Shown: positions 267-2,347 of the stretch, one piece after another
Layout: each line of letters starts with the position of its first letter
Numbering within the stretch: position 1 is the stretch's first letter
NCBI RefSeq assembly: GCF_013167455.1
Contig: NZ_CP038328.1
Direction: 5' to 3' (one strand)
Length of the DNA: 64,000 nt
Source: Escherichia coli O157:H7
GTDB lineage: Bacteria; Pseudomonadota; Gammaproteobacteria; Enterobacterales; Enterobacteriaceae
Notes under the pieces: model-generated
Told to the model about the DNA's origin: nothing
Databases searched by the model: none
Seen by the model: only the letters and a program-made list of their open reading frames with translations
Program-made: the position numbers and the translations under genes

Positions 267-298
267 CGTTGCGTTAATCAAAACGCAACGTCTTCTTT
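267..298 (+). terminator. Intrinsic terminator after rsmI
   Basis: Hairpin cgttgcgtt / aacgcaacg (267-290) followed by a T-rich tract tcttctttt. Confidence 0.5.
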
Positions 299-712
299 TA
301 CCGCACGATGACGGTAATGGTGGCTGTGCCCTGAAATTTTCCTGTTTCCAGCTCACCACCGACCAGATTAACTGGCCAGGCGCGCATATTGACGGTGCCA
401 TGCCCGGAAGGATCAACGGGAAGGATACCGTTCTGAAAAGGAATATTTGCAACTCCGCCGCCGAGATTTTCAATACGAATACCGACATCGGGCGCATTGT
501 CTGAACTTCTTCGTCTGGCGACCAGGTTGTACTGGTCTACTACCCCAGTTGTACCGTCGATGCGCATTTGCAACGAGTTTTTAATCTTTGAAGTATCACC
601 ACAGTCATAAGTGATATCAAAGTCTACTGGAGTAAAACCGTCTGGCATGGCATTGCGGGTGGTAAACTTCTGACCATTGATGAATCCAAAATTAACCTTA
701 ATAACATCGCCC
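298..712 (-). pseudogene. yraK: Fimbrial adhesin-like YraK, C-terminal fragment, separated from its 5' part by an IS element
   Basis: Minus-strand frame resumes at 712 directly after the IS inverted repeat (GDVIKVNFGFINGQKF...ATITVIVR, stop at 298-300); the ORF-track start at 789 lies inside IS sequence. Confidence 0.7.
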
Positions 713-754
713 TGAACCGCCCCGGTTTTCCTGGAGAGTGTTTTATCTGTGAAC

Positions 755-1645
755 TCAGGCTGCCAGATCATCGTTTCCGATGGAAGCATAATAAGCTTTT
801 TCTGCTTCTGCCGGAGGAGTATGGCCCAGCCTTCCCAGCAATCGTCGATTGTTATACCAGTCCACCCACGTTAGTGTGGCCAGTTCCACTTCTGCACGGT
901 TTTTCCAGCTCTTACGGTGTATTACCTCCGCTTTGTAAAGACCATTGATGCTCTCAGCCATCGCGTTGTCATACGAGTCGCCTGTACTCCCTGTTGATGC
1001 CAGTAATCCGGCTTCTTTTAGTCGCTCCGTATAGGCCAGTGACACATACTGAGAGCCTTTATCGCTGTGATGGATGGTGCCAGACGGACGACGGGCCCAC
1101 AACGCCTGCTCCAGCGCATCCAGCACGAATGTCGTTTCCATAGACGATGAGACCCGCCACCCCACGATGTATCCGGCAAACACATCAATGATAAACGCCA
1201 CATAGACGAAGCCCTGCCATGTGCTGACGTAAGTAAAATCAGCCACCCACAGCTGGTCAGGTCGTTCTGCCACGAACTGACGGTTTACGCGGTCGCCTGC
1301 GGCAACGGCTTTCCGGCTGATGGTCGTACGGACCTTTTTACCCCGGAGAACACCGGCAAGTCCCATAACCGCCATGAGACGTGCCACTGTACATCTGGCC
1401 ACCCTGATTCCTTCCCGTAACAACTGACGCCAGACTTTACGCACACCGTACACCTGATGATTTTCATCGTATACGCGCTGTATCTCTCTCTTCAGCCAGT
1501 CGTCGTGCTGCGCACGGGCACTGCGTTTATCCGGATGATGTCGCTGTTGCTGACAATGGTAATACGTTGACGGGGCAATATGCAGTTCGCTGCATACCGG
1601 TCCGACCCCGTACTGCTCACGCAGCTTATCCAGCAGTGGCATCAT
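755..1645 (-). CDS. IS3-family transposase OrfB (DDE integrase domain), 296 aa
   Basis: [17 protein letters not shown]...; D..D..E-type integrase-like sequence (HSDKGSQY...DNAMAES); -1 frame relative to orfA. Confidence 0.9.
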
Positions 1646-1968
1646 TTTTTCCAGAGGCGGTCGAACTCCGCCTTCGCAAAATAAGCGGAAGCCTGGCGAA
1701 GGATATCGTTACTGCGGCGCAGTTCACGATTTTCACGTTCCAGCTCTTTCAGACGCTGACGTTCAGCGCTGGTGAGCCCACCATCACCGCCCCCGGTATC
1801 CCGCTCATGCTGGCGAACCCAGACACGCAGAGTCTCCGGCGTACAGCCAATCTTTGGGGCAATGGAACAAATTGCCGCCCACTGTGAGTCATATTCATCC
1901 TGACTTTCCAGAACCATACGAATCGCCCGCTGACGGACTTCGGGGGAAAAACGAGTATTTTTAGTCAT
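1642..1968 (-). CDS. IS3-family transposase OrfA (HTH DNA-binding), 108 aa
   Basis: [25 protein letters not shown]...; ends in an AAAAAA run overlapping the orfB start, typical of programmed -1 frameshifting. Confidence 0.9.
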
Positions 1969-2022
1969 CCTGTTTACCTCTTTCTCAGGGAGTTTAGTCT
2001 CCAGGATTTCCGGGGCGGTTCA

Positions 2023-2347
2023 TGGTTTTAATATCCAGGCTGTCATTGAGTTTGTAATATCCTGTCTGATGTCCAGTGGTGGTAAGTACGGGGCTGACCA
2101 TATAGACAAGTTTAACTGCCTTACCCGCAGAGCAGGAACAGGCGTATTGCCAGTTAGTGCTACTTAGCGTTGCAGAGGTAAACTCCCGTCCTGTCACGTT
2201 ATCTGTCTGGTTCACCGTAACATCATCAACCACACTGCTGTAATTTGTCGCACCGCTAGTGCTGTCAGCTCCACACCCTTCTGAGGAGGCATAAGCGCAG
2301 GATGTGGATATCAACAAAAGTCCTGTTATAAGAGGCGCTCTTTTCAT
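2023..2347 (-). pseudogene. yraK: Fimbrial adhesin-like YraK, N-terminal fragment (signal peptide plus about 108 codons), truncated by the IS element
   Basis: ATG at 2347 with signal peptide MKRAPLITGLLLISTSCAYA; frame runs into the IS end at 2022 and terminates inside IS sequence. Confidence 0.7.

Follow-up and report, generated by a model that had tools for sequence, protein, structure and literature searches.

Both ends of a local deletion beside IS629 in yraK of Escherichia coli O157:H7 are recurrent IS629 target sites

How does a fimbrial gene come to hold a complete insertion sequence (IS) with no target-site duplication around it, and to lack part of its own sequence as well? This question is raised by yraK in a stretch of 64,000 nucleotides from Escherichia coli O157:H7 (assembly GCF_013167455.1, contig NZ_CP038328.1), which was analysed at its full length and is called the window in the following. 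Here yraK, with which the chaperone-usher operon yraHIJK ends, is split by an IS629 copy and has lost 352 bp beside it. The feature as such is an ordinary IS-mediated pseudogene, already annotated in strain Sakai and catalogued as IS.22. New here are the exact lost interval, the finding that IS629 has repeatedly targeted both of its ends, and an allele series reconstructed for this locus.

With this in mind, we compared the interrupted gene with uninterrupted alleles. yraK, recognised by its place immediately after the usher gene yraJ and facing rsmI in convergent orientation, lies on the minus strand, as does the IS, with its ATG start at 2347 and its stop at 298. Intact yraK has 1092 bp (363 amino acids, aa) in K-12 MG1655, O157:H7 PV15-279, O55:H7 CB9615, sorbitol-fermenting (SF) O157 493/89 and LSU61. 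When aligned to these alleles, the two window fragments are not contiguous: the window keeps nucleotides (nt) 1–325 and 678–1092 of the gene (325 + 415 = 740 nt, ~246 codons), and nt 326–677 are lost, an interval of 352 bp or 117.3 codons that is not a multiple of 3 (2916–3267 in the PV15-279 locus). The initial annotation, made from the window alone, was right about a native length of ~360 aa and about the loss itself; its ~256 codons for the two fragments were too many, and its ~100 missing codons too few. A simple transposition into a natively short gene is excluded by the 1092-bp alleles of K-12, O55:H7, 493/89, LSU61, PV15-279 and three assemblies with 100%-identical flanks.

The 5′ fragment (2023–2347, minus strand) encodes the signal peptide and the first part of the N-terminal domain and differs from the O55:H7, 493/89 and PV15-279 allele solely by G68A (Gly23Glu), and the 3′ fragment (298–712, minus strand; 415 nt) encodes most of the C-terminal Fimbrial domain and is 100% identical to nt 678–1092 of the same three alleles. 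In intact YraK the Pfam Fimbrial domain PF00419 spans residues 211–362; of the lost codons 109–226, about 109–210 fall in the N-terminal part, where Pfam finds no match, and the other 16 encode the beginning of the pilin domain. Instead of a complete 363-aa open reading frame (ORF), the IS-split gene has two shorter ones, both on the minus strand. An ORF of 117 aa (1994–2347; Sakai pseudogene ECs_4023) joins YraK residues 1–108 to nine IS-encoded residues, MNRPGNPGD, and its truncated product (P0001) is present on at least 1000 contigs of the protein collection that we searched by exact look-up for protein intermediates and alleles (15 billion proteins). A putative chimeric ORF of 163 aa (298–789), exactly Sakai pseudogene ECs_4026, begins within the IS, overlaps the end of orfB and runs through 25 IS-derived codons in frame into the 3′ fragment; the exact protein (P0016) occurs in public collections. 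yraK is a pseudogene here, and the neighbouring genes are unaffected.

The interrupting element is a complete IS of 1310 bp (713–2022, minus strand). As the initial annotation had it, this is an IS3-family element in the orientation of yraK, with two overlapping reading frames in a −1 frameshift arrangement: orfA (1642–1968, minus strand; 108 aa) carries HTH_Tnp_1 (PF01527), and orfB (755–1645, minus strand; 296 aa) carries HTH_21 (PF13276) and the rve DDE integrase core (PF00665). Across their overlap lies the ALIL pseudoknot (1571–1687, minus strand; Rfam RF01497, 121.5 bits against a gathering score of 50), which is a −1 programmed frameshift signal, and RefSeq records also note 'programmed frameshift'. 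The inverted repeats, IRR at the orfB end (713–737, plus strand) and, by terminus search, IRL at the orfA end (1998–2022, minus strand), are imperfect 25-bp repeats matching at 22 of 25 positions, and not the intact 26-bp repeats first described; the element begins with TG and ends with CA. The terminal 13-mer TGAACCGCCCCGG occurs exactly twice in the window, at 713 and 2022 (0.09 expected by chance), so that the window holds a single IS629 copy. By its size, repeats, ORFs and near-identity to annotated copies, the element belongs to the IS629/IS1203 group of the IS3 family; its sequence agrees at 100% with that of the Sakai element, for which the annotation gives 'IS629 transposase OrfB' and, as a repeat_region, 'IS1203 Family: IS3'. 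One base within IRR varies: position 726 (IS position 14) is T in the window and G in the copy of strain MB9-1 and in the other IS629-type copies read. A 46-mer across the left junction matches 123 O157 genomes exactly and 63 with one base off, the differing base being confirmed as 726 in MB9-1 only.

The flanks of the IS read ...catcgccc on one side and tggttttaat on the other, that is, the triplet CCC (710–712; yraK nt 678–680) at the left end and the triplet TGG (2023–2025; yraK nt 323–325) at the right, and they form no direct repeat of 3–4 bp, in agreement with the initial annotation. A duplication of 3–4 bp is the mark of a fresh IS insertion and not of the family. Other IS629-type copies in yraK and yraJ do carry duplications (GTGG, CCC, CCT, CAC, AAC, TCC, TCT and ATA). 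We queried 5,426 complete E. coli genomes with the hypothetical ancestral junctions, namely yraK ...aatgTGG followed by an IS end and an IS end followed by CCCtgatt.... An undeleted TGG-site junction would read ...GCCTGTAATGTGG joined to TGAACCGCCCCGG, and an undeleted CCC-site junction CCGGGGCGGTTCA joined to CCCTGATTAATTTTGC.

What these queries turned up were IS629-type elements that had entered yraK independently in unrelated lineages; every one of them has a duplication, and the gene is complete apart from the insertion. Strain 10153 has a GTGG duplication at yraK nt 323–326 (strains 8479 and 93_0495 give the same junction match); its IS is 96% identical to the O157 copy, and GTGG overlaps the O157 TGG with an offset of one base on one strand only. 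The non-O157 strain PSJ-32-1, found by the 46-mer across the O157 left junction, has a CCC duplication at nt 678–680 and an IS629 that differs from the window copy at 2 bases. Further sites are marked by TCC at nt 312–314 (MMC-J-0105), CCT at nt 692–694 (210221272), CAC at nt 95–97 (OkiPb01683) and AAC at nt 118–120 (ETEC1706). With six sites from other lineages in 1092 bp, one window junction would coincide with such a site to within 1 bp by chance in ~1.6% of cases, and both would do so far less often, by our own arithmetic. Judged by these matches, both window junctions are genuine IS629 target sites. Since both are sites of independent insertion, the 352-bp deletion appears to be bounded by transposase target choice and not by random breakage.

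The yraK sites of independent insertion, at least six in number, lie mostly beside TAAT/ATTA or TGTAAT motifs, in what is a small sample. Their positions suggest a local target preference. Three further patterns were considered and set aside. A bias in the orientation of the yraK insertions is an artefact, because the first query could detect the gene orientation only, and the insertions in PSJ-32-1 and in yraJ are in the opposite one. A yraK sequence resembling the inverted repeat, which might have attracted the IS, reaches at best 9 of 13 positions in an ungapped match to the 13-nt repeat core, and we treat it as chance. The same holds for the 8-mer ACCGCCCC, spotted by eye ~20–30 bp inside the deleted segment, of which ~0.2 occurrences are expected by chance according to our own arithmetic.

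In PSJ-32-1 the two halves of the insertion are no longer together: ...catcgCCC is followed by the IS at one place, and the IS is followed by CCCtgattaat ~120 kb away, beside a second IS629 copy. The GGT duplication of this second copy has been swapped reciprocally with CCC, which amounts to a ~120-kb inversion between two IS629 insertions. The two copies lie at 3024–4333 of locus L029 and 1216–2525 of locus L030, the second in a gene for an amino-acid ABC transporter substrate-binding protein beside yhdX; strain PSS-04 gives the same partial junction match as PSJ-32-1, as a match only. PSJ-32-1 thus provides a precedent for reciprocal recombination with a distant IS629, by inversion or translocation, which in O157 would have placed the missing yraK segment beside the partner copy, as between the PSJ-32-1 yraK copy and the one beside yhdX. 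In O157, however, the two yraK flanks lie side by side, collinear and equally oriented, 352 bp apart in the uninterrupted reference, and the window has no second IS629. Moreover, a 552-bp query spanning the missing segment finds at most two places per genome, which in split genomes are the two flanks, so that no genome has a third match able to hold the 352-bp segment. As there is never a third match, the segment was deleted and not moved; together with the collinear flanks this excludes reciprocal exchange for all practical purposes and leaves a true local deletion.

When did this event take place, and what has become of the allele since? Window positions 1–2700 are 100% identical to O157:H7 Sakai, EDL933, Xuzhou21, 86-24 and many more, and at least 80% of this segment is covered in a single place by 188 of the 5,426 genomes. 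The insertion/deletion event is absent from O55:H7, SF O157 493/89, LSU61 and the pair PV15-279 and F3113, whose yraK is intact (in F3113 by annotation). PV15-279 has the pO157_2 plasmid type, and the pO157 plasmids of PV15-279 and F3113 are set apart from all others. Intact 363-aa YraK with Glu23 is found in the assemblies of SRR5024444, SRR24229726 and SRR10063413, whose flanks are 99.98–100% identical to the window. G68A is seen otherwise only in the O157 pseudogene; as an intact YraK with Glu23 occurs, G68A is older than the insertion, and the immediate pre-insertion haplotype apparently still exists in these assemblies. They carry yraK with G68A at 6001–7092 (locus L011), 467–1558 (L012) and 312–1403 (L013), respectively, and an intact yraHIJK operon.

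The IS-less O157:H7 alleles, found by exact protein look-ups, all keep the 352-bp deletion and Glu23. Their counts were obtained with 46-mers able to seed only across a junction; a 200-bp query is unsuited, since its pieces join over the 352-bp gap in intact genomes. The scar of SS52 and 2009C-3378 (82 complete genomes, 845 contigs) has lost 1316 bp relative to the window allele at an ATG microhomology and is frameshifted. Two other scars have each lost 1315 bp and encode in-frame products of 244 aa: P0004, at an A microhomology, joins YraK 1–107 to 227–363 (19 complete genomes, 506 contigs), and P0007, at a C microhomology, joins YraK 1–108 to 228–363 (2 complete genomes, 23 contigs). In each case the IS and 5–6 bp are gone (equivalent to window 705–2023; 2679–2681 of locus L007 in 2009C-3378, and loci L024 and L025). 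A few flank bases, different ones in each scar, are missing from the scars but still present in the window allele; the scars thus descend in common from the IS-bearing allele, which has lost its IS by excision on at least three occasions. The scars match the footprint described for IEE-promoted, microhomology-associated IS629 excision, with loss of the IS and a few flank bases at a 0–4 bp microhomology; IEE is present mostly in O157 (PMC9943667). MB9-1 followed another course: the IS and left junction are kept, and window 2023–2943 (921 bp), i.e. the yraK 5′ fragment and 586 bp of yraJ, is lost, leaving a new junction GGTTCA/taactgtatcc (2833/2834 of locus L031) with no notable microhomology. 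This deletion derives from the IS-bearing allele. The 46-mer across the left junction occurs in 186 O157 genomes, against 183 for the one across the right junction, so that by junction counts the MB9-1 type is found in at most about three.

Could the 352 bp have been lost after a single insertion without any contribution of transposase, by slippage or by microhomology end joining between TGA at the IS end and the yraK sequence cccTGAttaat? The 3 bp TGA are indeed common to the IS end (window 713–715) and the first deleted bases, microhomologies of 1–3 bp occur at the later excision scars of the same locus, and IEE has microhomology-mediated end-joining activity in vitro (PMC9943667). Yet a 3-bp match in one of four junction comparisons is expected by chance in ~6% of cases (own arithmetic), and IEE in vitro joins overhangs with at least 4 bp of homology (PMC9943667). 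Furthermore, the ordinary insertion in PSJ-32-1 creates the same ...gCCC/IS boundary, which argues that the left endpoint is a transposase target and TGA merely the next bases. We thus consider a transposase-independent deletion improbable.

Hence the structure is, with high probability, the product of two transposase-directed events of either kind, one at TGG (nt 323–325) and one at CCC (nt 678–680). This supports what the initial annotation had proposed in general terms, an insertion followed by an adjacent deletion or by recombination between IS copies, and not a simple transposition. As to the kind of events, we prefer, if with somewhat less than even confidence, two IS629 insertions followed by IS–IS recombination, the order of events and the recombination step being inferred. 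IS629 would have inserted at the TGG and CCC sites in the same orientation and duplicated 3 bp each time; the two copies, which are direct repeats of 1.3 kb, would then have recombined homologously, with loss of one of them together with nt 326–677; and a single intact IS would have remained, with CCC on one side, TGG on the other and no direct repeat. We lean towards this route because ordinary copy-out-paste-in transposition and recombination between close repeats suffice for it, and because the locus has been hit repeatedly in O157. Indeed, yraJ carries an insertion with a TCT duplication in PV15-279/F3113 and another with an ATA duplication in 2009C-3378, which makes a second hit in the same lineage realistic. 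Among IS629 sites in four O157 genomes only 21 of 47 have duplications (PMC3271280), so that loss of the duplication is common for this element.

The alternative is that one insertion, most likely at TGG, was followed by an attack of the resident IS629 on CCC in the same molecule, with loss of 352 bp and of one copy of the duplication, either through a tandem IS dimer junction or through an aberrant strand transfer by transposase, possibly assisted by IEE. Adjacent deletions from tandem IS dimers are known in IS911/IS30/IS21-type elements, as is recombination of a new copy with a resident IS. Both leave a product like that in yraK: a single intact IS without duplication that abuts the new target, with the intervening DNA lost. 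This course would yield the same flanks ending at canonical target-site boundaries with fewer events, MB9-1 shows another IS-retaining adjacent deletion at the same copy (window 2023–2943), and deletions from a few nt to >40 kb beside IS629 are reported for IEE-positive O157 in the account that PMC9943667 gives, citing Kusumoto 2011. On the other hand, copy-out-paste-in transposition of IS3-family elements regenerates the donor (bioRxiv 10.1101/2023.06.07.543989), so that an adjacent deletion needs a special intermediate; the deletions reported for IEE go with excision of the IS, while the IS is kept here; and no intermediate was found in the searched complete genomes or in the protein collection. 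We regard such a one-insertion course as quite possible, if slightly less so than two insertions with recombination.

Several observations weigh against the two-insertion route as well. Neither hypothetical ancestral junction occurs in any O157 genome among the 5,426 complete E. coli genomes, short-read archives not having been exhaustively searched, and the protein collection does not contain the 242-aa product predicted for a CCC-site insertion without the deletion. By exact look-up, the 242-aa N-terminal fragment (with E23 or G23) and a 44-aa junction ORF are all absent there; the 186-aa C-terminal fragment is present, but in frameshifted or disrupted yraK of diverse E. coli, none with IS629 at nt 325. 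As with the dimer model, no double-insertion intermediate has thus been observed at the yraK locus. Moreover, three events are needed where the alternative needs two, the CCC insertion of PSJ-32-1 has the orientation opposite to that required, and the 921-bp deletion of MB9-1, a second IS-retaining adjacent deletion, ends at no known insertion site. Finally, the sequence does not separate the routes, since a one-step intramolecular transposition would result in exactly the same one.

How does this compare with what is known of IS629? The site 'IS.22, backbone' of Rump et al. 2011 (PMC3271280, Table S2) is the element described here: the flanks listed for it, ATTAAAACCA and GGGCGATGTT, are identical to those of the window when read in the direction of the gene. 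IS.22 is recorded for Sakai and EDL933 and as missing from EC4115 and TW14359 (PMC3271280); the latter agrees with the excision-scar allele that we find in SS52 and 2009C-3378. In the Sakai annotation (ECs_4023–ECs_4026), too, the element is named IS629/IS1203 and the two parts of yraK are pseudogenes, as in the window. Neither Rump et al. 2011 (PMC3271280) nor the Sakai annotation mentions that 352 bp are lost, that the junctions are two separate target sites, or that IS-less strains have scars as opposed to an empty site. Our literature search found no paper pairing yraK with IS629 (Ooka 2009 and Kusumoto 2011 being outside its coverage) and nothing relevant under the ECs locus tags, and the O157 comparative-genomics papers checked do not mention yra.

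IS629-linked gene inactivation, deletions and excision footprints are established for O157 (Ooka 2009; Kusumoto 2011), as summarised in PMC9943667 and bioRxiv 10.1101/2023.06.07.543989. In the description of PMC9943667, IEE-promoted excision concerns the same element in the same host, and its gene inactivation, flanking deletions and small microhomology footprints match the yraK alleles. In contrast to that excision model as outlined there, the 352-bp event kept the IS and ended at canonical target sites, which the model does not predict. In Shiga toxin-producing E. coli O121:H19, IEE-mediated IS excision from lacZ restores lactose utilization, according to the account in PMC9397093; there as in yraK, a chromosomal gene that loses its IS gives rise to diverse alleles in a natural population. 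Unlike lacZ in that account, yraK cannot be restored by excision, because no duplication guides precise excision and 352 bp are already gone.

The surroundings of yraK are otherwise intact. The 3′ end of rsmI (1–255, plus strand; ORF and Sakai annotation) is convergent with yraK and untouched by the IS. The usher gene yraJ (2358–4874, minus strand; ORF and Sakai annotation), upstream of yraK in the same operon, is complete with 838 aa as annotated, and yraH and yraI are ordinary coding sequences in the Sakai record, which is 100% identical to the window. The operon lacks its last, adhesin-like gene in this strain, as the initial annotation had concluded. In K-12 the yra fimbrial operon is cryptic. 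In related genomes, further rearrangements are seen around yraJ. The IS629 of PV15-279 lies in the 3′ end of yraJ in the opposite orientation (3688–4997 of locus L002; TCT at the equivalent of window 2440–2442), with one base different from the window copy, and F3113 matches its junction at 100%. 2009C-3378 has a new yraJ IS629, also in the opposite orientation (3274–4583 of locus L007; ATA at window 2613–2615), and the IS copy in its yraK is gone. In strain 81EVA an IS629-like element at the 3′ end of yraJ (2503–3812 of locus L009) adjoins an unrelated gene with a beta-galactosidase domain, an IS-associated rearrangement. In the metagenome assemblies ERZ28574081 and ERZ28667613 (loci L020 and L021, ~3172–4061), the distance from the end of yraJ to the 186-aa C-terminal yraK ORF suggests that yraK may be ~210 bp shorter than normal in some non-O157 E. 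coli.

In summary, the yraK feature itself matters little, and it leaves the current understanding of IS3-family biology unchanged. It is possible, though we hold this only tentatively, that yraK has sequence-defined IS629 hot spots (TGG at nt 323–325 and CCC at nt 678–680, beside TAAT/ATTA-rich tracts) that are used recurrently and independently across E. coli. If so, O157:H7 would keep a complete natural allele series at one locus, from the pre-insertion G68A haplotype over the IS with the 352-bp deletion to three independent scars, two of them in frame, and a further 921-bp deletion. Such a series could serve to calibrate the behaviour of IS629 and IEE where no target-site duplication is available, the three scars showing that IS629 is excised without one, with the IS and 5–6 bp lost at 1–3 bp microhomologies. 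The state of yraK (intact, IS-bearing, one of three scars, or extended deletion) also splits O157:H7 into recognisable groups and is thus a lineage marker. Among the predictors that a machine-learning model selected for O157:H7 clinical outcome, YraK is the most numerous annotated class (43 features; PMC12711010, 2025, Table 1), and we infer that this k-mer signal may reflect allele class as a marker of lineage, not a cause or an adhesin function. That unrelated lineages reuse the same two target sites exactly speaks for a target choice of IS629 that is less random than Rump et al. 2011 (PMC3271280) concluded.

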